A stretch of 64,000 bases of DNA from an uncultured Pelagibacteraceae bacterium (GTDB taxonomy: Bacteria > Pseudomonadota > Alphaproteobacteria > Pelagibacterales > Pelagibacteraceae), in NCBI GenBank assembly GCA_902588585.1, contig CACIPQ010000002.1, forward strand, positions 28,911-92,910, given 5' to 3'. The notes under the pieces were generated by a model. That model had not been told where the DNA came from, did no database searches, and saw only the letters and a list, made by a program, of their open reading frames with translations. Made by a program: the position numbers and the translations under genes. This document shows, piece after piece, positions 7,049 through 59,635 of this stretch (positions within the stretch are counted from its first letter, which is position 1; the number at the start of each line of letters is the position of its first letter).

Positions 7049-7099
7049 TAGAAATATTTATTGAATCTTTATATTTTGATTTTATATTATATCTGTTGG

Positions 7100-7352
7100 T
7101 TTTCCAACTATGACGATAAACGAGTTTCGTAATAAACATTGCGGACGTGGGGGCAGTACCCACCACCTCCACCATTTACAACTTATGGGGGTGAATCAGA
7201 ATCGACGGGTGTCTAAAGGCTATTCTTTCGTTCGAGATGGTTCCGACGTAACGGGCTAATTTTAAATGCAAATAATAAATTTGCACTTGCTGCTTAATTA
7301 ACTTTGTTAATTAGGTAAACGGGGTTTGGGGCACCTGGCAACAGAACGCCCC
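7100..7352 (+). ncRNA. ssrA: Two-piece (circularly permuted) tmRNA gene: acceptor piece, 12-nt spacer, then coding piece
   Basis: T-arm gtggg(7147-7151)/cccac(7159-7163), 3' acceptor strand cacctcc(7164-7170) and ACCA(7171-7174) lie UPSTREAM of the 5' strand gggggtg(7187-7193). That strand pairs with the acceptor strand, including a G3:U70-type wobble. The segment GGGGGTGAATCAGAATCGACGGG resembles the canonical tmRNA 5' end. The tag frame is at 7268-7297. Outer boundaries are uncertain by about 30 nt. Confidence 0.85.
7268..7297 (+). other. tmRNA tag reading frame encoding ANNKFALAA followed by a stop
   Basis: gca aat aat aaa ttt gca ctt gct gct taa. It has a GCA resume codon after an A/U-rich tract and ends in the hydrophobic LAA degron typical of tmRNA tags. 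Confidence 0.8.
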
Positions 7353-7354
7353 TT

Positions 7355-8293
7355 CTAATTTTCTAATATTTTTCTTATTCCCGCCTTTAAACTATACCTG
7401 GGTTTAAAGCCAAGTTTTTTAATTTTTTTAATATCAGGAACTCTAATTGTGGTTCCTCCTTTTTTGAGTGGAGATTTTTTCAATATAATTTTCTTATTTA
7501 AAATTTTTGAAATTGTTAAAGCTAATTTTTTCATAGTGATTTTTTCTGTTGTTCCAATATTATAAATATTTAAGTGCTTTCCTTTTTTAATTATTAGTTC
7601 AAATGCTTTTACAAAATCATCTATAAATATAAATGATCTTATCTCGTTGCCAGTGCCTTGAATCTTAAATTTTTTACCCTTTAAATTTTTAAATCTTGCT
7701 AAAAATTCAGGTATCACATGTTCCGTTCCCATATTTAAACCGTAGACATTGTGTGGTCTAAAGATAATTAGTTTTTTAAAAAGTTTTCTTCCTAAATTAA
7801 TGCCCATTACTTCGGTTAAAATCTTTCCTACACCATAAGAATAACGGGGGTTATAAACGTCGGGTACTTTTAACATTTCGTTTTCTGTAGTTGGAATTTT
7901 AAGAGGTGTTTGGTAGACCTCTGAACTAGACGCTAAATATAACTCTTTAATTTTATATTTAACGCATCCGTCTAGAACGTTTAACAATCCTTTTACAGCC
8001 ACATCTAAAACTAAATTTGGTTTTGAGTAAAAATATTTTGTTCCATTAACATACGCAAGATGTATAACAGCATCAATATTGTTTAAACATTTAAAAAATT
8101 TTTTTCTATTTCTTACGTCTCCCTTAATAAAATTTATTTTTTTTTTGGACCTTAATTTTTTAATGGAACCCCTAAAATTATTATCAAAAATGGTAACTCT
8201 AAATCCTTGTCTGATAAGACTTTCTGTAATGTTTCTTCCTATAAACCCGGTACCACCAGTTATTAGATAAGATTTAGTTTTTTTTTTAAACAT
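7355..8293 (-). CDS. Extended-SDR NAD-dependent sugar epimerase/dehydratase (UDP-glucuronate decarboxylase/ArnA-C-terminal-like)
   Basis: Rossmann motif ITGGTGFIGRN, catalytic ASSSEVY and YSYGVGK (YxxxK). It is the last gene of a tightly packed sugar operon. Confidence 0.7.
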   Translation of the reverse strand: MFKKKTKSYLITGGTGFIGRNITESLIRQGFRVTIFDNNFRGSIKKLRSKKKINFIKGDVRNRKKFFKCLNNIDAVIHLAYVNGTKYFYSKPNLVLDVAVKGLLNVLDGCVKYKIKELYLASSSEVYQTPLKIPTTENEMLKVPDVYNPRYSYGVGKILTEVMGINLGRKLFKKLIIFRPHNVYGLNMGTEHVIPEFLARFKNLKGKKFKIQGTGNEIRSFIFIDDFVKAFELIIKKGKHLNIYNIGTTEKITMKKLALTISKILNKKIILKKSPLKKGGTTIRVPDIKKIKKLGFKPRYSLKAGIRKILEN

Positions 8294-8294
8294 T

Positions 8295-9005
8295 TTATTT
8301 TATATTTTTTATACCCCAAATGAACCATCTTAAATATTCTATTAACCAAGGACCAAATTTAAAAGTCGAAGAACCTCCAAAAAGCCTATCAACTGATTTT
8401 AAGGGAAATTCGTCAATTTTATATTTTTTAAGATAAACTTTAATTGAAAGTTCAAATGAAAATGCCCATCCTATGGGTTTAGATTCCAATTTTATTGATT
8501 GCCAAATATTTTTTTTCATCATTTTTATACCCGTTGTACAGTCCGAAAGGGGAATTTTTGTAAAAAATTTAAATGATTTATTTGCAACTCTTGAAAAAAT
8601 TGAACCAATTAATGAACCTCCGAGTCTTATACCTCCTTTGGCATATCGAGTTCCACTTACAAAGTCTAAATCGTTTTGGATAAAATGAGATATCATTTTA
8701 TCAACTGCAACTATTGGAAATATTTCATCAACAGCTGTTATTAAAATTATTTCATATTTTGCATTCTGCACACCAGCCTCAACCGCATGTCTAACGCCTT
8801 TTTCTATTTTGTTATGTACCAACTTTATATTGTCAAATTCTTTAACTAGACTTTGTGCAACATTAATAGCGTTATCTTGTTCCGAGTCATAAACGATTAT
8901 AATTTCTTTAGGAAATTTAATTGAAGAATTAAGCAATCTTACCATAATAGGAAGGCTATCTCTTTCGTTAAATATTGGTAAAATTATTGATAATTCTTTT
9001 TTCAT
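8295..9005 (-). CDS. Family-2 glycosyltransferase (polyprenyl-phosphate sugar transferase, ArnC/Dpm1-like)
   Basis: N-terminal LSIILPIFNE...IIIVYDSEQD GT-A/GT2 signature in a 236-aa protein. Substrate is inferred from operon context only. Confidence 0.65.
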   Translation of the reverse strand: MKKELSIILPIFNERDSLPIMVRLLNSSIKFPKEIIIVYDSEQDNAINVAQSLVKEFDNIKLVHNKIEKGVRHAVEAGVQNAKYEIILITAVDEIFPIVAVDKMISHFIQNDLDFVSGTRYAKGGIRLGGSLIGSIFSRVANKSFKFFTKIPLSDCTTGIKMMKKNIWQSIKLESKPIGWAFSFELSIKVYLKKYKIDEFPLKSVDRLFGGSSTFKFGPWLIEYLRWFIWGIKNIK

Positions 9006-10108
9006 TAATTGTTATTTTTTAAAAATAAATTTATTAAGTTACATACTTTTTTTTGCTCTTTTAAACTCATGTCTAGAGATGACGGAAGCCACATCATTTT
9101 TTTTTGTATTTTCTTAGAATTAGACAACGTTTGGAAAGAAGATTTGTAAGGAAAGCAAGTATTCATGGGATGCCAGTAATATCTACAAATAACATTTTTT
9201 GCTTTTAAAAAATTAAATAATTTATTTCTTTTTTCACAATATACATCTGTCCATAAAGGAAGTTCTCCTTTTTTAAAATTAAAATTTATTATTTTAAATT
9301 TTGAATTTTGGCGAATATTTTTTACATAATATTCGTGTATCTTATTCAGTTTTTTCATTCTCCAGTTTATATTTTTTAATTGGGAAAGGCCTAATGAAGA
9401 TTGTAGGTTTGAAAATTTAAAATTATAACCTTTTGATCTGTAACTGTCCTCTCCTCCTGAAGTTAGCCCAACTCTTCCTTGATCTTTTAATCTTTTAAGA
9501 TTTAAATAAATTTTTTTACTATTAGTGACTACTACTCCCCCTTGACCAGTTGTAATTATTTTATTAGGTGCAAATGAAAAACAACCTGCCTCACCAAAGG
9601 TACCCAGAAATTTTTTTTCATATTTTGATCCAAATGCTTCAGCTGCGTCCTCAATAATCTTAATTGATTTCTTTCTGCAAATATTAACAATGTTTTTAAT
9701 ATTTTTTCCTCTTCCAGAAACATGAACGGGAATTAAAAATTTTGTTTTCTTAGTTATTTTTTTTAATAAAGCTTTTTCATCGATCAAAAGGTTTTTTTGA
9801 TTGATATCAACTAAAACTGGTTTTGCTCCTGCCATTGCTACAGCATTAGCGGTGGCTGGAAAAGTTATATTTGGAATTATAACTTCATCATTATTTTTAA
9901 CGCCGCATGCCTTCAATGCTAAAAAAATTGCTGTTGTTCCGCTGGTTGTTGTAGCTGCATACTTAACTTTTAAAAAATTACATATTTTTTTTTCAAATTC
10001 TTTTGTTTGTTTTCCTTCATTAGGAAAATTATTTTTAAGAACATTTCTAGTTATATTTATGGTATCGGTTATATTTATTAAGGGTTTAGATAGAATTATC
10101 TTTTTCAT
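9005..10108 (-). CDS. DegT/DnrJ/EryC1/StrS-family PLP sugar aminotransferase (ArnB-like)
   Basis: 367 aa with ATTTSGTTAIFLAL and IIEDAAEAFGS blocks, and an FSFAPNKIITTGQGG Lys-containing block typical of sugar 4- or 3-aminotransferases. Confidence 0.8.
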   Translation of the reverse strand: MKKIILSKPLINITDTINITRNVLKNNFPNEGKQTKEFEKKICNFLKVKYAATTTSGTTAIFLALKACGVKNNDEVIIPNITFPATANAVAMAGAKPVLVDINQKNLLIDEKALLKKITKKTKFLIPVHVSGRGKNIKNIVNICRKKSIKIIEDAAEAFGSKYEKKFLGTFGEAGCFSFAPNKIITTGQGGVVVTNSKKIYLNLKRLKDQGRVGLTSGGEDSYRSKGYNFKFSNLQSSLGLSQLKNINWRMKKLNKIHEYYVKNIRQNSKFKIINFNFKKGELPLWTDVYCEKRNKLFNFLKAKNVICRYYWHPMNTCFPYKSSFQTLSNSKKIQKKMMWLPSSLDMSLKEQKKVCNLINLFLKNNN

Positions 10109-10110
10109 TT

Positions 10111-10896
10111 TTATTTTGGCGAATTTATAAGTTTATGAGTAGAAACCAAATTTTTGCTCACAAAATAATAAGATTGGGTTCCAATTGTAATTTTTGGTGG
10201 TGGAAAAGGCTCATGAATCATTGATCTAAGAAAATTATAAATTTTTCTTCCGCTCCATGACCAATTGATTTTTCCATTATTAGGAAAATTTTTCTTCTTA
10301 TACTTAAGATTTTGACCTTTAAGCCTATAACTAAAAATTTTTTGTTTCTTTAAAATTTTACTAAAAATTTTTTTGAACTCTTTAAAACTTTCATTCGTAA
10401 ACTTTTTATAAAGAGTTTCAGCTGTATCATGATTTAAAATTTTAATTTTTCTTTTTGATATAATTCTGCCTGAGTCTATTTTTTTTCCCAACCAATGTGC
10501 CGTTATACCTGTCAATTTTTCTCCATTAAATATTGCATGAACTAAAGAGTATCTACCTCTATACTTTGGTAGTAGAGAAGGATGAATGTTCAAAACACCA
10601 AATCTTGGATAGCTAACTAATTCTGATGGTAATATTTGTGTAGAACCCAAACAAAATATCACATCTAAATTTATTTTTTTTTTTACTAATACTTTTTTTA
10701 ATTTCTTTAATTCTATTTTTTTTAATTTATTTTTTTTAGATAATTTTGATACTGATTTATTAAATGAATTGTCAGTACCGTTGTCATCCTTATTACAAAC
10801 AACATATAAAGGTTTAATTTTTCTTTTCAGTAAATAGCTTAAGCAATTGTAGCCTAGCTGTTTGCCCCCAACAAAAATATAATTTAATTTTTTCAT
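10111..10896 (-). CDS. Formyltransferase (Fmt/ArnA-N-terminal/sugar N-formyltransferase-like)
   Basis: LNIHPSLLPKYRG motif (the folate-dependent formyltransferase HxSLLPxxRG) in a 261-aa protein. Confidence 0.75.
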   Translation of the reverse strand: MKKLNYIFVGGKQLGYNCLSYLLKRKIKPLYVVCNKDDNGTDNSFNKSVSKLSKKNKLKKIELKKLKKVLVKKKINLDVIFCLGSTQILPSELVSYPRFGVLNIHPSLLPKYRGRYSLVHAIFNGEKLTGITAHWLGKKIDSGRIISKRKIKILNHDTAETLYKKFTNESFKEFKKIFSKILKKQKIFSYRLKGQNLKYKKKNFPNNGKINWSWSGRKIYNFLRSMIHEPFPPPKITIGTQSYYFVSKNLVSTHKLINSPK

Positions 10897-12081
10897 CTAC
10901 TCTTTAGATCGACCCCATATATCTATAACATGTTTATTTTTGGAAAATTTTAAATTCATATATTTTTTATGGGGCGCACCAATAATTATTATATCAGATT
11001 TTTTTATAAGACTATTCGTTTTATAATAGTTTTTATCTCTGTAATAGACATCGCTATATATAACCTTAAATTTTCTTTTTTTTAATTTTTTTATCAAATC
11101 AATTGATAAAGAATCTCTAATATCGTCTGTTTCAGCTTTAAAAGTTACACCAAGAATACCAATAATTTTTTTTTTAGAATTTTTAATATTTTCTACTTTT
11201 TCAATAACCAAGTCTACCATGCTTTGATTTATCTTCATTGATGCAAAACCTAATTCAAATCTACCTTTGTAAAATGAACTCAGTTGCATTGTATCTTTTA
11301 ACAAACATGGTCCGGCAGTAAATCCTGACTTTGGCAGATTTAAATTTCTCTCATAACCAAACTTCATCAATTTTCTAATTCTATCAAAATCGACATTGTA
11401 TTTTTCACACATAATAAAAAGTTGGTTTGCAATTGCAAAATTGATGTATCTATTAGCATTTGAAAATAATTTTATTAGTTCAGCTTCCTGAATAGTCGAA
11501 AGAAGAATTTTTTTACAAATTTTTTTAAAAAGTTTACTGACTATATGAACAGAATTTTTATTAACCCCAGCCACTACTTGTGGTAAGTTAGGCAGTTCAA
11601 TTAAAGCTTTGCTTTGGACAATTCTTTCAGGACAATAAACAATATTGTTATTTTTCGTTTTTAAAATTTTTGATATTTTTCTTATCATTCCAGGATAAAC
11701 AGAGCTACGAATTATGAGTATTTGATTTTTGTTGATAATTTTTAACAATTTATAAAATAAAGCTACGAAGTTTTTAACCTCGGGTTTTAATTTTTTATTT
11801 ACGGGTGTACCTATGCAAATTATTATAAATTTACTTGTTTTGACTGTTTTCAAATCATTGCTAAAAGATAAAATTTTTTTTTTTAAGCACTTGTGTAAAA
11901 GTTTTTTTGCGCCTATTTCATAAAAAGGCGGTATACCTAATTTAATTTTATTTAAATTTTTTTGATCAACGTCAACTAAGTTAATTTTATATTTTTTTGA
12001 TCCAAATGCTAAGCCAAGAGGAAATCCAACGTGTCCTGCTCCACCTACAATACTAATAGAATTTTTAATAATTTTATTCAT
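10897..12081 (-). CDS. Nucleotide-sugar 6-dehydrogenase (UDP-glucose/GDP-mannose dehydrogenase family)
   Basis: N-terminal Rossmann motif ISIVGGAGHVGFPLGLAF and a catalytic-Cys block GFTAGPCLLKD, in a 394-aa protein. The sugar substrate cannot be assigned. Confidence 0.75.
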   Translation of the reverse strand: MNKIIKNSISIVGGAGHVGFPLGLAFGSKKYKINLVDVDQKNLNKIKLGIPPFYEIGAKKLLHKCLKKKILSFSNDLKTVKTSKFIIICIGTPVNKKLKPEVKNFVALFYKLLKIINKNQILIIRSSVYPGMIRKISKILKTKNNNIVYCPERIVQSKALIELPNLPQVVAGVNKNSVHIVSKLFKKICKKILLSTIQEAELIKLFSNANRYINFAIANQLFIMCEKYNVDFDRIRKLMKFGYERNLNLPKSGFTAGPCLLKDTMQLSSFYKGRFELGFASMKINQSMVDLVIEKVENIKNSKKKIIGILGVTFKAETDDIRDSLSIDLIKKLKKRKFKVIYSDVYYRDKNYYKTNSLIKKSDIIIIGAPHKKYMNLKFSKNKHVIDIWGRSKE

Positions 12082-12122
12082 ATTGAAGATTAATTTGTAT
12101 TATTATACTAACTAATAGTAAA

Positions 12123-13364
12123 ATGAAAAAGTACTCCAAAATAATTACAAAGTGTCAATTCTCTAAAAAAAAAGATCTTCAAACTGTTTTATCACTTGGA
12201 TTTTTGCCTGGTGTCAATCAAATGCAAAAAGTTAATTCGAATAATAATTTTGAGTATTTTTTTCCTACTAATTTAGTTTATTCACCATCCTCAAAATTAT
12301 TTCAAATTGATAACATAGTTGACAAAAAAATTTTATTTCCAAAAAGTTATCCTTATACAAGTAGCACAACAAAAATTTTGCGTGATAATTTTGAAAATTT
12401 GTATAAAGAAACTAAAAATACTTTTGGATTAAATAAAGATGACCTTGTTGTTGATATTGGGTCTAATGATGGTAACCTTTTAAAAAAATTTAAAAACTGT
12501 AAAGTTCTAGGAGTAACTCCTGAAAAAATTGGATACAAAGCCATTAGAGACGGGATACCTACAATCATAAACTATTTTAATAAAAAAGTGGTTAATCAAA
12601 TAAATAAAAAATATGGAAAAGCAAAAATTATTACAGCAACCAATGTTTTTGCGCATATAGATAACATTGATGATTTAATGAGAAATATTCTTAAACTAAT
12701 AAAGGAAGATGGTGTTTTTATAACTGAGTCACATTATTTTCTGTCTCTGGTCAAAACACTGCAGTATGACACAATTTATCATGAACATTTAAGATATTAC
12801 ACTGTAACGAGCTTAAAAAATATTTTTAAAAAATATGGAATGAAAATTATAAAAGTAAAAAAAATAAATACTCATGGTGGTTCAATTAGGGTCTATGCTG
12901 TAAAAAATAAAAAATTTTCAATTGATAAAAGTGTAAATAAGTCGCTAATCGAAGAAAAAACATTTTTGTCAAAAAAAAATATAAAGTTATTTAGAAATAA
13001 AGTATTAAAATCTAAGTCTGATTTACTTTCAAAGATTTTAAAGATTAAAAAAAATAATAATTCTATTTTTGCAGTAGGAGCACCTTCGAGAGCAACTACT
13101 TTGGTAAATTATGTTGGTTTAAATGAAAATTTAATTGACTGTATTTGTGAAATCAAAGGATCTCACAAAATTAGTCATTATTTACCTGGAACTCGAATAC
13201 CTATTGTGTCTGAACAAATAATTTTTAAAAAAAAACCCGAATACTTGCTGATATTGTCATGGCACATTTCAAGAGAACTAATAAAAAATTTAAGAAAAAA
13301 AGGTTACAAAGGAAAATTCATTATACCTTTACCAAATCCTAAAATTGTCAGAAAATATAATTAG
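12123..13364 (+). CDS. SAM-dependent C-methyltransferase (NDP-hexose C-methyltransferase-like)
   Basis: Class I motif I is VVDIGSNDGNLL. The long C-terminal domain and overall 413-aa architecture resemble TylCIII-type sugar C-methyltransferases. This is a by-eye call. Confidence 0.6.
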   Translation: MKKYSKIITKCQFSKKKDLQTVLSLGFLPGVNQMQKVNSNNNFEYFFPTNLVYSPSSKLFQIDNIVDKKILFPKSYPYTSSTTKILRDNFENLYKETKNTFGLNKDDLVVDIGSNDGNLLKKFKNCKVLGVTPEKIGYKAIRDGIPTIINYFNKKVVNQINKKYGKAKIITATNVFAHIDNIDDLMRNILKLIKEDGVFITESHYFLSLVKTLQYDTIYHEHLRYYTVTSLKNIFKKYGMKIIKVKKINTHGGSIRVYAVKNKKFSIDKSVNKSLIEEKTFLSKKNIKLFRNKVLKSKSDLLSKILKIKKNNNSIFAVGAPSRATTLVNYVGLNENLIDCICEIKGSHKISHYLPGTRIPIVSEQIIFKKKPEYLLILSWHISRELIKNLRKKGYKGKFIIPLPNPKIVRKYN

Positions 13365-14864
13365 ATGGATAAATTCTTAAAATTTTTAAGTAATAAATAT
13401 ATTTTGTCTATTCTTTTTATTAATATATTTTTTTTTCTTTTAACTTTTAACAATCCATGGACATTAGATGATTACGGATATTTTTCTGCAGGAAAGTTAT
13501 ACAATCTAATTAATAATAAAGTAATTAGTTTTGAACCTTTTATTTTTGGAAGTGGCTATGGCCTTCATTTAGAAAGCAGATATATGCCATTATTTTATTT
13601 TTTGAATCAAATACTGCCTTCTTCTAGCATCTTGTTTCATTTAATTATTGTTACTGTTCACACTCTTACATGTTTTATAGTTTTTTTAATCTCAGAAAAA
13701 ATATTTCAAAAAAAAAATTTGTCTTTTTTATTTTCACTTTTTTACACTCTAAACTACAGCATAAGTATTAAAGCATTATCCTGGAATGTATTCTATGGAC
13801 ATATAATTGCTGCCTTTTTTGGTTTGCTATCTATATATTTTTTAATTTTATTATTTGAAGAAAAAAGAATAAAAAAAATTTATTTATTAATTTATTTTTT
13901 ATTATCTTCTTTTTCTTTTTTAACAACCGAAAGCGGTTTAGTATTTCCAATAATAGGATCCTTTATTCTTTTGTTTTTTTTCAAAAAAGATAAATTAATA
14001 TCAAAATTTTTTATTTCTTTATTCCCATTGGTTATATTTATATTCTTAGTTTATTTAAATACTGGAAAAATTTTACCTTTGCTAAAAGATAGAGCAACAA
14101 ACGAAGATCAAACTAAAGTTGAAAAAATTTTAAATTCAAATAATGAAAATAAAATTCATTTTTACAGATCTACTTATGCCCCACGTAATTTAGAGGGATA
14201 TGTATTAAGAAGCATTGATAACGTACTTGGAAGTATTAACCTAACTTCTCTTGAAAAAGTATTAAAGTATTATGATAAAAACGATATAATCAAATTTCAT
14301 TTTAAAAAGAATATATACTTTTTTCTTACTGCTATACTTTTTATTATATTGTTTTTCTTATTTTTTATTTTAAAAGAAAAGTACTCAAAAAAAAATCTCA
14401 ATTTAATAACCAAAAGCTTTGTAATTTATTTATTAATATTTTTTATTTATAGTATAATTTTTTTTAGAAGAGATATAAATTTTGGCCTATCTTTCTGTTC
14501 CGCGCTATTGCTAACCAGTTTAATTAAAAACTTAAATGATAACAATTCTATTTTAAAAATTAGGTTAATAGTAATTTCTTTTGTGCTTCCTTCAGTTCTT
14601 TATGCTGCAACTTTTTTTTCCTACTGGGGAGAAGATTGGGGTCCAAAATCTGAAATGATAAAAAAATCAAACTACATAATTCAAATGACAAAAAAAGGTG
14701 AGCTTATTCAAAATTTGAAGTATCGTACTGATTATAAAAACTTATATTACCTTTACCATTTTAATAACTATCAAAGTTATTTGAGCAAAAAATATAAAAA
14801 TATGAATTTTATTAATTTTCAGAAAACTTTAGAAAAAGATTTTGAATTATTTCAAAATAAATAA
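13365..14864 (+). CDS. Polytopic membrane protein, candidate GT-C-fold glycosyltransferase (ArnT/PMT-like)
   Basis: 499 aa with more than 10 hydrophobic segments. An acidic pair sits in the first predicted loop (NPWTLDDYGYF) and the C-terminal ~100 aa look soluble. The start codon directly follows the methyltransferase stop (TAG ATG). Confidence 0.4.
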   Translation: MDKFLKFLSNKYILSILFINIFFFLLTFNNPWTLDDYGYFSAGKLYNLINNKVISFEPFIFGSGYGLHLESRYMPLFYFLNQILPSSSILFHLIIVTVHTLTCFIVFLISEKIFQKKNLSFLFSLFYTLNYSISIKALSWNVFYGHIIAAFFGLLSIYFLILLFEEKRIKKIYLLIYFLLSSFSFLTTESGLVFPIIGSFILLFFFKKDKLISKFFISLFPLVIFIFLVYLNTGKILPLLKDRATNEDQTKVEKILNSNNENKIHFYRSTYAPRNLEGYVLRSIDNVLGSINLTSLEKVLKYYDKNDIIKFHFKKNIYFFLTAILFIILFFLFFILKEKYSKKNLNLITKSFVIYLLIFFIYSIIFFRRDINFGLSFCSALLLTSLIKNLNDNNSILKIRLIVISFVLPSVLYAATFFSYWGEDWGPKSEMIKKSNYIIQMTKKGELIQNLKYRTDYKNLYYLYHFNNYQSYLSKKYKNMNFINFQKTLEKDFELFQNK

Positions 14865-14873
14865 TGTTTTTTC

Positions 14874-15245
14874 TTACGCAACAAATTTACTCAAATCTGG
14901 TTTAAAATAATTTGGCCCTTTCATAACTTTGCCCTTGTCATTATAAATAGGTTTCCCATCTGATCCTAATTTGCTCATGTTCGAATTTTGTACCTCTTCA
15001 AAACATTTGTCGAGATTAATTCCAAAAGCATGACCAGCTCCATATGTAACATAAAGTATATCTGTTAATGCGTCCGCAACCTCTTTAATGTCTTTTTTAT
15101 CGATAGCTTCTTTTAACTCTAATAATTCCTCTTTTATAAGGTCGTATCTAAGACTAATAATTTTTTCCTCAGGAAATTCGGCATTTTCCTTTACCTCTTG
15201 GCCGAAAGTTTGCATAAATTTTTTCACACTAGTAAAATTACTCAT
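14874..15245 (-). CDS. MazG-like nucleoside triphosphate pyrophosphohydrolase domain protein
   Basis: 123 aa, all-alpha, with the EE..EL..A....D...E.AD.L.D..Y pattern ([13 protein letters not shown]...[12 protein letters not shown]). Confidence 0.6.
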
Positions 15246-15305
15246 ATTTCTGCCTTTATATTTTATAAATATTTAATAAAAGTGTATTATATCAAAGAAT
15301 CGCAA

Positions 15306-16697
15306 ATGAAATACAGAACAGAATATGATTCAATTGGAAAAATTAAAGTTCCTGGTGATAAGTATTGGGGTGCGTCAACTCAAAGATCCAATAAATACTT
15401 TGATATCGGTGATTTCCTTATAAGACCAGTTTTAATTCAATCAATAGCTGTCATTAAAAAAGCTGCGGCAATAGTTAATGCACGAAACGGGGATTTAGAA
15501 AAAAAAATAAGTAAATACATTGTGAAAGCAGCTGATGAGGTAATTAAAGGAAAACTTCATAGTCATTTTCCTTTAAAAGTTTGGCAAACAGGGTCGGGAA
15601 CTCAAACCAATATGAATGTTAATGAAGTAATTGCCAACAGGGCAATACAGATGATGGGCGGCAAAATGGGAACCAAAAAACCCGTTCATCCTAATGATCA
15701 TGTAAACAAATCACAATCAACTAACGATGTTTTTCCGACTGCCATGCATATTGCGATTGTCGTGAAAACGAAAAATAAATTGCTGCCTTCTTTAAAATTG
15801 TTAGAAAAAGAATTAAGCAAAAAGGTAAAGCAATTCAATAAAATAGTTAAATTAGGTAGGACACACCTTCAAGATGCCACTCCTTTAACTTTGGGACAGG
15901 AATTTTCTGGATATCAATCTCAATTAAAAAAATGTATCGAAAGAATAGAGAGAGCTCTAAGCGAAATATACTATTTAGCACAGGGAGGTACAGCCGTAGG
16001 TACAGGCTTAAATACTAAAAAAAATTTCGATAAAAAAATTATAAAAGAAATTAATAAAATAACCAAATTTCCTTTTAAACCAGCAAAAAATAAGTTTGCA
16101 GCCTTAGCTGCCCATGATTCAATAGTAAATTTTTCTGGAACAATGAATACTACCGCTGTTTGCTTGATGAAAATAGCTAACGATATAAGATTTCTAGGAT
16201 CTGGACCGCGAGCGGGTTACGGAGAATTAATATTGCCGGAAAATGAACCAGGTTCTTCGATAATGCCTGGTAAAATAAATCCAACACAATGTGAGGCTGT
16301 TACAATGGTTTGTGTAAAAGTGATTGGAAATCACAATGGTATTACTATGGCAGGATCACATGGTCATTTTGAATTAAACGTTTTTAAACCTTTGATTATA
16401 CACAACATTCTTCAATCAATAAATATTATGTCCGACTCTTCTAAATGTTTTGCTAATTATTGCATTAAGGGTTTAAAGGCTGACAAAAAAAGAATTAAGT
16501 CTCTACTTGATAATTCTTTGATGCTAGTAACAGCTCTTTCCCCAAAGATTGGTTATGATAATGCAGCAAAAATAGCAAAGAAAGCTTTAAAAAATGGAAC
16601 AACTTTAAAAGAAGAAACTTTAAAAACTGGCCTTATAAACGAAAAAGAATATTTAAGAATTGTAGATCCAAAAAAAATGATCAAGCCTAATAAATAA
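15306..16697 (+). CDS. fumC: Class II fumarate hydratase
   Basis: [29 protein letters not shown]-terminus and the [11 protein letters not shown] signature loop. The start is trimmed from the track ORF (15198) to the ATG at 15306, which removes the overlap with the MazG-like gene. Confidence 0.9.
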
Positions 16698-43471: not shown

Positions 43472-43830
43472 AAAAGCTAGGCAATCTTTAAGCCGGGTTC
43501 TGTCATTTAAGATGTCATTTATCTAGATTTAAGTTCGCACTTAAATTCAAGCGACTAACCCTGATGACTAACTAAAGACTGTTTTTAGCTTACGCAGTGT
43601 CATCTCTTTTTAGTCTTGCTCCCAGTGGGGTTTGCCGTGCGTTTTTTGTTACCAAAAAACCGGTGTGCTCTTACCACACCGTTTCACCCTTGCCTTGATC
43701 AGGCGGTCTATTCTCTGTGGCACTATCCCTAAGGTCACCCTCGCCAGCCATTAGCTGGCACCGTGTCTTTATGGAGCCCGGACTTTCCTCCACTAATTTA
43801 AAGTGGCGACAATCCAATTGCCTAGCGATT
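43472..43830 (-). ncRNA. rnpB: RNase P RNA, bacterial type A
   Basis: The minus strand contains GGAAAGTCCGGGCTCC (43788-43773), AGGGTGAAACGGTGTGGTAAGAGCACACC and ACAGAACCCGGCTTA (43503-43489). P1 pairing is gctaggcaat/attgcctagc at the two ends. Ends are uncertain by about 10 nt. Confidence 0.9.
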
Positions 43831-46048: not shown

Positions 46049-46125
46049 TGGTGGGCCCGCCAGGATTCGAACCTGGGACCAATACATTATGAGTGTACTG
46101 CTCTAACCAGCTGAGCTACAGGCCC
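46049..46125 (-). tRNA. tRNA with anticodon CAU (Met elongator or, more likely, lysidine-modified Ile2), encoded CCA
   Basis: The reverse complement folds as a 77-nt cloverleaf. Its parts are GGGCCTG / TA / GCTC-AGCTGGTTA-GAGC / A / GTACA-CTCATAA-TGTAT / TGGTC / CCAGG-TTCGAAT-CCTGG / CGGGCCC-A-CCA. Confidence 0.9.
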
Positions 46126-58032: not shown

Positions 58033-58698
58033 TTAGGATTTCACTTTCCAGTCAGTTTTAAAGGAAACATAGTTAACCTGTACGCAGCGTCTTTCTTTTT
58101 TGATCTCTTTTTTTTCCATTCCATGCCAAGTATTTGGCCCGCTAGTAAAGAAATAACCATAATTATTTCTGTAAGGGACAGTTTTGACTTTATTAAGTTT
58201 TTCATCATAAAAGTCAGTTCCTAAATTTTCTGATTCATTAAAGGGATTAACAAATATTAATGATGATAATAATTTCTCTTTAATATCGCAGTGTGGCTTA
58301 AGCCAAAATCCAGTTCTGTCACAAATTACCTCTACTCTTACAAAAGAGTTTGATAAATCCTTTTTTATTAGTTCGCCTATGTACTGTTGTACATTTTTTG
58401 AGCAAAGTTCATTAATAAAATTTGTTAATTCAGGAAAATTTTTTGAGTTTTCTTTCGTTACAAAACATCTATATTTTTTAGCTTTACCTCCAGACTTAAT
58501 GCCTTCTCTATATGTGCCCTCACCTCCGTCGATAGCTCTTGTTCCATCGTATTTAAGACCATCGATAATAGGGTTGGCAATTTCAGCACTACAAACCTCT
58601 TTTATGGCCAATTCTGTCAAAGGTTGGTTTATAGCCCAATGTTTGAAAGGTTTGTCGTAAGTTTCCAATCTTGACTTTAATGAATTAAATAATTCCAT
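58033..58698 (-). CDS. 2OG-Fe(II) oxygenase-superfamily-like protein
   Basis: HxD...H...R pattern: LKPHCDIKE, then NTWHGME, then RRCVQVNY. The N-terminal KPFKHWAINQPL resembles the PFxHxxIDxFL start of prolyl-hydroxylase-like enzymes. This is a by-eye call. Confidence 0.5.
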   Translation of the reverse strand: MELFNSLKSRLETYDKPFKHWAINQPLTELAIKEVCSAEIANPIIDGLKYDGTRAIDGGEGTYREGIKSGGKAKKYRCFVTKENSKNFPELTNFINELCSKNVQQYIGELIKKDLSNSFVRVEVICDRTGFWLKPHCDIKEKLLSSLIFVNPFNESENLGTDFYDEKLNKVKTVPYRNNYGYFFTSGPNTWHGMEKKEIKKERRCVQVNYVSFKTDWKVKS

Positions 58699-59635
58699 TT
58701 TTTTTCATTTTTTCTTTTACCATAGATGCGGCACGATTAACTTCGTCTAATCCGCTATAAGTCCAATGCTCAATTTTATCATCCAGATCCCTAATTATAC
58801 CAAGATCTTTGAACAATTTATAAAACTTTTGAAATCTATGAATATTTTTTTTATTTTTCATTTGTGCAACATATACTGGTTTGCCTGTAATAGCAGCCTC
58901 TGAAATCATTGATGTTGAATCGCAAGTTACAATTATAATGTCTGCAAGACCAAGTGACGATAAATAGGCTTTTTTGTCTCTTTCTTTTACTACCAAATGA
59001 TTATCGCTAAAGTAATTAAAAGCAAGTTTTAAGATATTTTCTGGAGTTCTGTACGACGGAATTACAATCAATTTATATTTTGAGTAAACAAACAAATTTT
59101 TTATTTTTGCAAATGTAGAGGTCATTTGCTTTTCTGAAAAACCATAATATTTATTTGGGCCTCCAAGAATAAGGGTAACAATTTTTTTGTTTTCTGCTCT
59201 TGGGTTTAAATAATTTATGTTTTTTTTAATTTCATCATTGGTAAGATAATGTATAGCTCCTTTGGTTTTAATAACATTATTGCCATCCAAATTGTCGTGT
59301 TCTGGACAAATAATAGAATCAAAATTACTCAGACCTACCTTTGGGTCCTGAATATGAATTGTAAATATTTCTTTTTTAAACCGTCTCTTTAACAAAATAG
59401 AGGGAACTACGCTTTTTCTTCCGCAAGAAATTACTACTTTTGAATCGCAAATAAACCTATTTGCTAAAATGCTCTCAGATACTGGTGTAAATTTTGGCGG
59501 AACAATATCCCAGATTTTCTTAAGTTTTATGGTTTCATGCCTAAATTTTAAACCCAGGGCTTTTGCCAAACCTTCAACCTGGCTTATCATACCATGCATA
59601 CCTTGGGTCAAAAGAAGGGCTCTGAGCTTTAACAT
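58685..59635 (-). CDS. ELM1/DUF1022-family protein (predicted GT-B-like)
   Basis: The following blocks match my recollection of the ELM1 (mitochondrial fission) family consensus: LLLTQGMHGMISQVEGLAKALGL, HIQDPKVGLSNFDSIICPEHD, LILGGPNK, IPSYRTPE and ADIIIVTCDSTSMISEAAITGKPVYV. Confidence 0.65.
   Translation of the reverse strand: MLKLRALLLTQGMHGMISQVEGLAKALGLKFRHETIKLKKIWDIVPPKFTPVSESILANRFICDSKVVISCGRKSVVPSILLKRRFKKEIFTIHIQDPKVGLSNFDSIICPEHDNLDGNNVIKTKGAIHYLTNDEIKKNINYLNPRAENKKIVTLILGGPNKYYGFSEKQMTSTFAKIKNLFVYSKYKLIVIPSYRTPENILKLAFNYFSDNHLVVKERDKKAYLSSLGLADIIIVTCDSTSMISEAAITGKPVYVAQMKNKKNIHRFQKFYKLFKDLGIIRDLDDKIEHWTYSGLDEVNRAASMVKEKMKKNGII

Follow-up and report, generated by a model that had tools for sequence, protein, structure and literature searches.

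Organization of the cassette

The DNA described here is a stretch of 64,000 nucleotides from an uncultured Pelagibacteraceae bacterium (GenBank assembly GCA_902588585.1, contig CACIPQ010000002.1, positions 28,911 to 92,910 of the forward strand), which is referred to below as the window. It comes from a Pelagibacter (SAR11) genome and carries a compact gene cassette that is proposed to direct the synthesis of an unusual sugar and its delivery to the cell surface. Five of the genes, all on the minus strand, had been described in an earlier account made from the sequence alone (the sequence-only reading), which saw in them an unfused version of the enterobacterial Arn operon. The listing of open reading frames (ORFs) gives exactly the same limits for the five, and the packing is as tight as had been stated: in operon order, the first two gaps measure 0 nt and 2 nt, the third and fourth genes overlap by 1 nt, and 1 nt separates the last two. 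In addition, each gene product gives a strong Pfam match to the family that had been named for it. As these are long ORFs in DNA of 25% GC with such Pfam E-values, they do not arise by chance. Identical proteins in the same order are also present on independent marine metagenome contigs (L002–L009).

The unit comprises seven genes: the minus-strand five and two divergent genes on the plus strand (Table 1). The plus-strand pair was overlooked in the sequence-only reading, as was the adjoining gene for transfer-messenger RNA (tmRNA). The two genes of the pair are separated by 0 nt, and the first of them starts 41 nt upstream of the dehydrogenase gene. The intervening DNA is presumed to be a shared promoter region. 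A scan for promoters and terminators gave matches no commoner than in shuffled sequence, with one hexamer pair per strand in the intergenic region.

Table 1. Coordinates of the cassette genes and of the features that adjoin them (window numbering)
Feature	Position	Strand	Remarks
Nucleotide-sugar 6-dehydrogenase	10897..12081	-	394 aa; at the head of the operon; Pfam and NCBIfam
Sugar N-formyltransferase	10111..10896	-	261 aa; stand-alone, of the ArnA N-terminal domain type
PLP-dependent sugar 4-aminotransferase	9005..10108	-	367 aa; DegT family
GT2, DPM1/PpgS type	8295..9005	-	236 aa; no transmembrane helix
Extended SDR	7355..8293	-	312 aa; Pfam Epimerase with decarboxylase motifs
NDP-4-keto-sugar 3-C-methyltransferase	12123..13364	+	413 aa; divergent from the operon
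GT-C-fold membrane glycosyltransferase (predicted)	13365..14864	+	499 aa; about 10–11 transmembrane helices; fold and profile
Divergent intergenic region	12082..12122	.	41 nt, between the start codons of the dehydrogenase and methyltransferase genes
Two-piece alphaproteobacterial tmRNA gene (ssrA)	7057..7356	+	Rfam and ARAGORN; left edge of the island
PLP, pyridoxal phosphate; GT2 and GT-C, glycosyltransferase family 2 and fold class C; SDR, short-chain dehydrogenase/reductase; NDP, nucleoside diphosphate.

Dehydrogenase, formyltransferase and aminotransferase

The dehydrogenase matches the N-terminal, central and C-terminal UDPG_MGDP_dh domains of Pfam (E 1e-31, 5e-11 and 7e-15) and the NCBIfam model TIGR03026 (277 bits), and its catalytic cysteine is intact within GPCLLKD (residues 257–263). 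Its best solved relatives are the UDP-ManNAcA dehydrogenase 4r16 (E 3e-34) and Cap5O, with UDP-glucose dehydrogenases ranking later. BLAST against characterized enzymes gives 132 bits for UGlcNAcDH of Bacillus cereus, 93 for WecC of Escherichia coli and 67 for Ugd. Here, the B. cereus UGlcNAcDH and UXNAcS references were translated from the supplement of PMC5078965, with one frameshift repaired in each. These similarities suggest that the enzyme is probably a UDP-HexNAc 6-dehydrogenase of the GlcNAc type. The sequence-only reading had anticipated that a dehydrogenase grouping with UDP-GlcNAc/ManNAc dehydrogenases, together with an SDR grouping with plain 4-epimerases, would point to an ordinary O-antigen sugar pathway. 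The former is what is found, since the enzyme is nearer to those dehydrogenases than to Ugd; the latter is not, as the SDR has the motifs of a decarboxylase.

The formyltransferase matches Pfam Formyl_trans_N (E 7e-29). The sequence HPSLLPKYRG, singled out in the earlier account, is located at residues 105–114, and N103, H105 and D141 align with the catalytic triad of ArnA, which is intact. The best NCBIfam models are PRK06988 (130 bits, cut-off 316) and ArnA. The solved structures related to it (5uij, WbkC 5vyr, ArnA and WlaRD) are all of sugar N-formyltransferases, and it is equally close to formyltransferases acting on dTDP and on GDP sugars. The statement that the two activities of ArnA reside in separate genes is borne out, with a stand-alone decarboxylase-like protein and a stand-alone formyltransferase. 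This split is not new, as NCBIfam has separate models for the two (PRK06988 and PRK11908).

The aminotransferase matches Pfam DegT_DnrJ_EryC1 (E 5e-91), and its PLP-binding lysine is intact in FAPNKII (residues 179–185). The nearest NCBIfam models are LegC (251 bits), PseC, WecE, DesI and ArnB, all of which it matches below their cut-offs; LegC, PseC and WecE score higher than ArnB, and the enzyme shares 26% identity with E. coli ArnB. Among its solved relatives are perosamine synthases and 8vr3/8vr5, the latter two matched at E 4e-42.

The extended SDR

The SDR matches Pfam Epimerase (E 1e-45), a family assignment that leaves several reactions to choose from. Three motifs narrow the choice: ASSSEVY (with SSSEVY at residues 122–127), PRYSYGVGK (149–157) and IRVPDI (283–288). 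The corresponding sequences are ASTSEVY, IRWSYAICK and NRKPDV in B. cereus UXNAcS, and PSTSEVY, PRWIYSVSK and HRKPSI in the C-terminal domain of E. coli ArnA. Among the reference enzymes, the three-motif set is common to these two only. Elsewhere the active-site motif reads SS[TA]TVY (epimerases), STDEVY (RmlB) or SSCIY (Fcl), and R-x-P is present in none of these. In ArnA, Ser433/Glu434 and Arg619 are the residues that drive decarboxylation. In 25 close SAR11 homologues of the window enzyme, E125, R150, Y153, K157, R284 and P286 show no variation, and E125 is kept across the clade, including two distant metagenomic loci (L025 and L026) that are described below.

Overall similarity points in the same direction in part. 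BLAST against characterized enzymes gives 108 bits for UXNAcS (28% identity), 85 for RmlB, 72 for Fcl, 71 for GalE and 66 for the ArnA C-terminal domain (24% identity). The top matches in the sequence and fold searches include three decarboxylases, Pcryo_0617 (8vr2), EvdS6 and UXS1, with 8vr2 at E 2e-24 and giving the lowest root-mean-square deviation in the fold search. We take Pcryo_0617, like the aminotransferase relatives 8vr3/8vr5, to be linked to the route to 2,3,4-triacetamido-2,3,4-trideoxy-L-arabinose.

Gene context adds to the motifs. A dehydrogenase gene lies directly upstream of SDRs of the same clade on an Azospirillum plasmid (45% identity) and a Bacillus mycoides plasmid (34%); it also adjoins the SDR gene in the SAR11 loci and in L025, and is in the same locus in L026. 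On the Azospirillum plasmid (Azospirillum sp. B510, pAB510d; L021 7609–11057), the dehydrogenase, the same-clade SDR and an Fcl-like gene stand in a row within a Wzz/flippase/GT4 polysaccharide locus. On the B. mycoides plasmid (L022), the pair is accompanied by an adenylating enzyme, acyl carrier proteins and a DegT aminotransferase.

The sequence of the SDR thus has the features of the UXS/ArnA-C/UXNAcS group: S/T-x-E, PRxxYxxxK, R-x-P and a partner dehydrogenase. The enzyme is probably an NAD-dependent UDP-hexuronate (HexNAcA) C4-oxidase/C6-decarboxylase that would release a 4-keto-pentose. A decarboxylase-like SDR separate from the formyltransferase is what the sequence-only reading had proposed, and the decarboxylase motifs are indeed present while those of epimerases are not. 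A plain 4-epimerase was also considered, and is ruled out by the invariant Glu125 and by the need of the aminotransferase for a keto sugar.

The 3-C-methyltransferase

The first plus-strand gene encodes a protein that matches Pfam Methyltransf_13/23/14 and aligns over its full length (residues 6–409) with the mycarose 3-C-methyltransferase 4rv9 (E 6e-55). It also matches TcaB9 and 5t64, which is annotated as "Sugar 3-C-methyl transferase" and which we take to be KijD1. The zinc-ribbon, S-adenosylmethionine and C-terminal domains of the TylC3 type are all present, and the HEH motif is found as YHEHL at residues 219–223. Only one of the four zinc-ribbon cysteines of 4rv9 (CxxC...CxxC) is kept (C11), and the same loss is seen in the homologue from the SAR11 genome AG-426-L15 (L016).

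TylC3-type enzymes act on NDP-4-keto sugars, and all of the characterized ones use 6-deoxy-4-keto sugars. The window enzyme resembles TylC3, TcaB9 and KijD1 in its full-length homology and its YHEHL motif, but they act on dTDP-4-keto-6-deoxyhexoses in the context of antibiotic synthesis, whereas its predicted substrate is a UDP-4-keto-pentose and its context is a primary envelope glycan. As this conserved 3-C-methyltransferase belongs to the pathway, the product would not be 4-formamido-arabinose (Ara4FN). The earlier proposal of undecaprenyl-P-4-formamido-arabinose as the product is thus not sustained.

The GT2 protein

The GT2 protein matches Pfam Glycos_transf_2 (E 1e-19). Its best solved match is the Pyrococcus dolichyl-phosphate mannose synthase (DPMS) 5mlz (E 4e-14, residues 4–227). 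The only other named solved matches, GtrB (5ekp) and ArnC (9hwj), come next, and both are polyprenyl-phosphate enzymes. NCBIfam models for a dolichyl-P-hexose transferase, AglJ and PpgS are matched weakly, but from end to end, whereas only the N-terminal 120 residues align with ArnC. Hydropathy analysis finds no transmembrane segment in the GT2, in contrast to two in ArnC. The protein ends in an amphipathic helix (EYLRWFIWG), which is covered by the DPMS alignment. Based on this similarity in sequence, the GT2 is most likely a small, monotopic polyprenyl-phosphate glycosyltransferase of the DPM1/PpgS type, a class that includes the sugar synthase (GtrB) of three-component glycosylation systems.

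The 499-residue membrane protein

The second plus-strand gene encodes a polytopic membrane protein for which sequence searches of Pfam, NCBIfam and the PDB were all empty. Its family forms 15 clusters at the word-index level, and relatives in the genome collection were limited to two Pelagibacteraceae single-cell genomes. In the family alignment, D36 is invariant and D35 nearly so, directly after the first transmembrane helix (TM1), and the motifs RSTYAPRN and FFRRD are conserved. The AlphaFold2 (AF2) model has a pLDDT of 83 and a pTM of 0.86. When this model was used in Foldseek, all matches with a probability of at least about 0.8 were GT-C enzymes (AglB, DPY19, ArnT 5f15, STT3, AftA/AftB and Pmt4). 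Matches of other kinds (MFS-type and CLC transporters and a few unrelated proteins) had probabilities of about 0.3 or below, and no Wzy was among them.

Further support for this assignment came from profile searches. A HMMER profile of the family reaches proteins of 550–800 aa over their first ~230 residues, and three of the ten that were scanned (P0219, P0227 and P0240) carry Pfam PMT_2 there, followed by tetratricopeptide (TPR) repeats. Comparison of the family with the PMT_2+TPR proteins by hhalign gives a probability of 99.4%; the alignment spans the first 207 columns and lines up the two DD motifs. Thus, the modelled protein resembles GT-C enzymes in fold and has acidic residues in its first external loop, as does the third component of three-component systems. 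GT-C enzymes take lipid-linked donors (PMC11127046), and the 499-residue protein is most likely such an enzyme, a functional counterpart of ArnT/GtrC. In this protein, a candidate ArnT-type transferase, which had been outside the search of the sequence-only reading, adjoins the operon. Direct sequence similarity to ArnT was considered as well and dismissed, as both BLASTP and hhalign were insignificant.

Variants of the cassette

Most of the comparison loci were located by searching for relatives of the SDR and of the GT-C protein, and a scan of metagenomes with the formyltransferase added L025 and L026. In the SAR11 loci, a core is shared with the window: identity is 57–69% for the dehydrogenase, 66–74% for the SDR and 64–82% for the methyltransferase, which is present in all variants. 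A GT2 and a polytopic membrane protein accompany the core in every SAR11 variant examined. This core is combined with a tailoring slot whose content is exchanged. It holds an aminotransferase and a formyltransferase in the window, an aminotransferase and a hexapeptide acetyltransferase in L013 and L016, and a 260-aa RmlD-type reductase in L010 and L017. Such an arrangement would follow from a core whose product is a C-methylated 4-keto sugar that can go on to amination and N-acylation or, alternatively, to reduction.

The two transferases vary as well. Identity of the GT2 to that of the window is 80% in cassettes with an aminotransferase and 31% in those with a reductase, as expected if the GT2 reads the finished sugar. 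The membrane proteins are 35–49% identical within the 499-aa family, and three SAR11 variants have a member of the window's family. In the same slot, next to the methyltransferase gene, a second polytopic family of about 425 aa is seen in L010 (4802–6073) and L024 (5022–6317). These two proteins share 32% identity, match nothing in Pfam and have an acidic E-(S)-D-F sequence after TM1; they are possibly another unclassified GT-C family. In addition, the SDR gene of L010 is followed (10943–14405) by genes for a DedA/VTT membrane protein, a 654-aa protein that starts with MCGIFG (amidotransferase-like) and a YdjC-family protein. The DedA/VTT protein, which comes after the SDR in this variant only, is a candidate lipid-carrier flippase, and no counterpart of it was found in the window.

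The cassette also changes its place. The single-cell genome AG-426-L15 (L016) has the same thyX-ssrA...mazG-fumC locus with a different, 16-kb island, in which the cassette is present in another order. In L017 (263–4928) and L013 (16981–17189), the immediate neighbours of the cassette are 16S-23S or 23S rRNA genes, which places it in hypervariable region 2 (HVR2). As it is at ssrA in some genomes and in HVR2 in others, the cassette moves between both sites.

Outside this group, the sugar enzymes recur on metagenomic DNA of 53–57% GC. In L025 (1146–6610) and L026 (5332–12065), the formyltransferase, methyltransferase, aminotransferase, same-clade SDR and dehydrogenase are found together in other gene orders, with 30–47% identity to the window for the five enzymes. 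The formyltransferase homologues, at 41–58% identity, are still linked to the methyltransferase and aminotransferase genes in L024–L026, and in L025 and L026 the methyltransferase, at 40–43%, is next to both. The surrounding genes are capsule-synthesis-like, with Wzx-like (L025) or GT1 (L026) genes. Homologues of the window GT2 or GT-C protein were not detected in L025 and L026, and L026 has a 236-aa GT2 of its own. The recurrence of the five-enzyme set indicates that it is one pathway and an old, transferable unit; in SAR11, this sugar pathway is coupled to the proposed lipid-carrier/GT-C delivery module.

Proposed pathway

On balance, we favour the view that the seven genes form a flexible-island cassette for lipid-carrier-dependent surface glycosylation, of the three-component, Gtr/Arn-like kind, which brings its own pathway for an unusual sugar. 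The proposed route begins with the dehydrogenase, which would oxidize a UDP-hexose, most likely UDP-GlcNAc (or UDP-Glc), to the uronic acid. The SDR would then oxidize C4 and remove the carboxylate to give a UDP-4-keto-pentose, which the TylC3-type enzyme is predicted to methylate at C3. Amination at C4 by the DegT enzyme would follow, and the amine would be N-formylated by the formyltransferase. The DPM1-like monotopic GT2 may move the finished sugar onto polyprenyl phosphate. The lipid-linked sugar would be flipped across the inner membrane by a flippase that is not among the genes of the window, and the 499-aa GT-C protein is predicted to attach the sugar to an acceptor in the envelope. The earlier claim of a single pathway for an N-formylated 4-amino sugar on polyprenyl phosphate is thus retained, and agrees with the polyprenyl-phosphate enzymes among the solved relatives of the GT2 and with the decarboxylase motifs of the SDR.

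The most plausible acceptor is a surface polysaccharide or lipopolysaccharide (LPS), because the cassette sits in O-chain regions in other genomes. A protein acceptor may also be envisaged in view of the distant PMT_2+TPR relatives of the GT-C protein. The sugar would stay neutral, as the window has no homologue of a deformylase and the sister variants are N-acetylated or hydroxylated. A neutral, N-acylated sugar argues for a role in diversification of surface glycans and not in modification of charge. The product is probably a neutral, branched formamido-pentose that is so far undescribed. It is a bolder and rather doubtful proposal that it is a 4-formamido-4-deoxy-3-C-methyl-pentose, possibly 2-acetamido, which is new to glycans and is delivered via polyprenyl phosphate by the founder of a new GT-C family. 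A search of the literature found no paper on this cassette, on an Arn system in SAR11 or on C-methylation of a UDP-4-keto-pentose.

Relation to known systems

Gtr-type three-component systems (GtrA/GtrB/GtrC) decorate pre-formed O-antigens (PMC11127046). The cassette resembles them in its GT2 polyprenyl-phosphate sugar synthase with a variable GT-C protein, in its location on mobile or flexible DNA and in the predicted surface diversification. It differs in adding its own five-enzyme rare-sugar pathway and in that its island has no gene for a dedicated flippase of the GtrA, SMR or MATE type; in addition, the cassette was not found on viral contigs.

In B. cereus, UGlcNAcDH and UXNAcS convert UDP-GlcNAc to UDP-GlcNAcA and then to UDP-XylNAc (PMC5078965; GenBank GU784842/3). 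These enzymes are the best characterized relatives of both the window dehydrogenase and the SDR, and UXNAcS shares with the latter the STSEVY, RWSYxxxK and NRKPDV type of motif. However, identity is low, and UXNAcS reduces the 4-keto intermediate itself, whereas the keto sugar of the proposed pathway must be released for methylation and amination.

The O-antigen of Psychrobacter cryohalolentis contains 2,3,4-triacetamido-2,3,4-trideoxy-L-arabinose (PMC8040287). This sugar is a precedent for N-acylated 4-amino-pentoses that are made from HexNAc uronic acids, and its route and the B. cereus enzyme pair are the nearest biochemical parallels to the proposed pathway. It differs in being N-acetylated and not formylated, and C-methylation is absent. 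We know of no lipid-carrier/GT-C delivery in that system. An Rgt-like system for GalA, which we take to be that of Rhizobium, was also considered and is ruled out by Glu125 of the SDR, the need for a keto sugar and the genes for an aminotransferase, a formyltransferase and a methyltransferase.

Alternative explanations

A first alternative is a true Arn pathway, in which Ugd, a split ArnA, ArnB and ArnC make undecaprenyl-phosphate-Ara4FN that is deformylated and transferred to lipid A, lowering its negative charge. The chemistry follows the same order (6-dehydrogenation, C4 oxidation/decarboxylation, C4 transamination, N-formylation, transfer by a GT2 to polyprenyl phosphate and transfer by a GT-C enzyme), so that each Arn biosynthetic activity has a counterpart. 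The formyltransferase and SDR also share catalytic motifs with ArnA, including the S-E and R-x-P motifs of the SDR, and ArnA is one of the two best models for the former. We nevertheless regard a true Arn system as very improbable. The Arn enzyme set asserted by the sequence-only reading does not reach a single equivalog cut-off: for ArnA, the formyltransferase and SDR score 124 and 64 bits (cut-off 777); for ArnB (PRK11658), the aminotransferase scores 162 (631); for ArnC (PRK10714), the GT2 scores 27 (529); and for Ugd (PRK15057), the dehydrogenase scores 55 (757). The dehydrogenase is of the HexNAc type, the 3-C-methyltransferase is an additional and conserved enzyme and the GT2 lacks the transmembrane helices of ArnC. 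The absence of ArnD and ArnE/F that had been reported for the window is upheld, as queries from E. coli, run with tblastn and phmmer, matched nothing at E≤1 among all ORFs of the 64 kb. ArnT of family GT83 was not found in the window either, and the 499-aa protein shares with it the GT-C fold alone. The description of the pathway as charge-modifying is also unsupported, since there is no deformylase in the window and the N-acetyl or hydroxyl versions made by sister cassettes cannot yield a cationic sugar. The three other alternatives concern the SDR and the final transfer. The SDR may be a 4,6-dehydratase, in which case the sugar would be a 4-formamido-4,6-dideoxy-3-C-methyl-hexose (HexNAc) made by early steps of the bacillosamine/viosamine/legionaminic type, and the dehydrogenase would serve another glycan. 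The top NCBIfam models of the SDR and aminotransferase (LegB, 124 bits, and LegC) agree with this, as do the 120 bits for dTDP-glucose 4,6-dehydratase, the S/T-x-E and PRxxY motifs of GDP-mannose 4,6-dehydratase, the preference of all characterized TylC3-type enzymes and the L024 contig. This explanation is unlikely, because the operon opens with the dehydrogenase gene, which accompanies the SDR clade in SAR11, Azospirillum, Bacillus and L025/L026, and a 6-deoxy sugar cannot be the substrate of a dehydrogenase. The cassette, moreover, has a single GT2 and a single GT-C protein, RmlB has a D-E pair that the SDR does not, R-x-P-D-I matches decarboxylases only and UXNAcS outscores RmlB and Gmd.

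A different possibility is that the carboxylate is kept, and that C4 oxidation and transamination without decarboxylation place a 4-formamido-4-deoxy-hexuronic acid on the lipid carrier. In nucleoside antibiotics, 4-amino-hexuronic acids are made by C4 oxidation and transamination, and this precedent counts in its favour, along with the conserved dehydrogenase and an SDR function that is deduced from motifs only. The decarboxylation residues are conserved, however (E125 throughout the clade and both E125 and R284 in the 25 close homologues), and the nearest characterized relatives are all decarboxylases (UXNAcS by BLAST; Pcryo_0617, EvdS6 and UXS1 as top matches), which makes a retained carboxylate improbable. 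It is similarly hard to credit that the system uses no lipid carrier, with the GT2 as an ordinary cytoplasmic glycan transferase and the 499-aa protein as a polymerase, ligase, transporter or unrelated protein. The GT2 falls under all curated cut-offs and has a non-canonical DxD region, no flippase was found in the window, and in L025 and L026 the sugar pathway is part of capsule/Wzx-type loci, where no GT2 or GT-C protein of the window's kind was detected. Against this, three of the four distinct solved relatives of the GT2 are polyprenyl-phosphate glycosyltransferases and the DPMS alignment runs from end to end. All high-probability fold matches of the membrane protein are GT-C and none is Wzy, and a GT2 occurs with a polytopic membrane protein in all SAR11 variants examined.

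Several observations weigh against the lipid-carrier cassette that we prefer. The assignment of decarboxylation comes from motifs and gene context, not from a robust phylogeny: in a neighbor-joining tree the SDR clade is next to ArnA-C and UXNAcS with a bootstrap of 38%, and the deep nodes are weak. The overall scores of the SDR hardly differ between LegB, RmlB, GalE, UXS1 and an archaeal epimerase, with those to models of the RmlB, GalE and LegB type equalling or exceeding those to decarboxylases. The fold search does not discriminate, as epimerases, dehydratases and decarboxylases all give template modelling (TM) scores of about 0.8, and the active-site loop (residues 124–152) is a weak part of the AF2 model. 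The proline of R-x-P is not kept in the SDRs of L025 and L026. L024, an 8.8-kb contig with an aminotransferase, a GT2, a methyltransferase and a formyltransferase, has neither dehydrogenase nor SDR. In place of the metal-binding DAD of DPMS, ArnC and GtrB, the window GT2 and all of its close homologues carry AVDE (residues 91–94), and the GT2s of reductase variants carry PADD. The GT-C assignment is a fold-level call with TM scores of only 0.3–0.43. The comparison with E. coli ArnT was not significant by BLASTP and had a probability of 0.3% by hhalign, and the partner set for the hhalign comparison with PMT_2+TPR proteins was picked from the matches of the same profile, such that the two are not fully independent. 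Finally, homologues of the flippases GtrA, ArnE and ArnF are absent from the window.

Implications for SAR11 surface glycans

Surface glycans of SAR11 are thought to be the main target for recognition by pelagiphages, and their genes dominate the flexible genome. To our knowledge, almost nothing is known of the chemistry of these glycans. Here, a small and self-contained cassette predicts a specific and probably new branched formamido sugar, as well as a new GT-C family for which there is no Pfam model. Module swapping (formyl, acetyl or hydroxyl groups and two families of membrane transferases) could explain surface diversity at a fine scale. If the more specific proposal for the sugar and its delivery is true, swapping of tailoring and GT-C genes between the ssrA island and HVR2 would constitute a serotype switch in the most abundant bacterium of the ocean, and this switching would shape susceptibility to pelagiphages. 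The cassette also illustrates that an Arn-like gene set alone does not indicate cationic modification of lipid A or polymyxin-type resistance.

The island and its surroundings

The cassette occupies an island (7355–14864) with a GC content of 25.1%, compared with 29.7% in the rest of the window. Its left boundary is the 3' end of ssrA, and on the other side 9 nt separate it from a MazG-like gene, after which comes fumC. The ssrA gene is a classic hot spot for integration. A search of the distal end of the island for an att-like direct repeat matching the tmRNA 3' end was negative, and viral contigs gave no relatives of the GT-C protein or the formyltransferase; carriage by phage is therefore without evidence. 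In the flexible regions of SAR11 genomes, glycan islands are usual, and HVR2 is rich in genes for surface polysaccharides. A glycan cassette in such a streamlined genome is thus to be expected, contrary to the sequence-only reading, which had found the pathway surprising there.

The tmRNA gene was identified with Rfam (RF01849, 223 bits; RF04321, 130 bits), in agreement with ARAGORN. It is of the two-piece (permuted) type, encodes the tag ANNKFALAA and fills what had appeared as a 300-bp gap between thyX and the SDR gene. Its 3' end overlaps the stop codon of the SDR gene by 2 nt.

Elsewhere in the window, and unrelated to the cassette, are genes for RNase P RNA (43473–43825, minus strand), tRNA-Met (46049–46125, minus strand) and a protein (58685–59635, minus strand) that matches Pfam Mito_fiss_Elm1 over its full length (E 1e-74). 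The mechanical ORF of fumC (15198–16697, plus strand; 499 aa) has a TTG start that overlaps the MazG-like gene. Gene callers give 463 aa for fumC on metagenome contigs, and the true start is probably further downstream.

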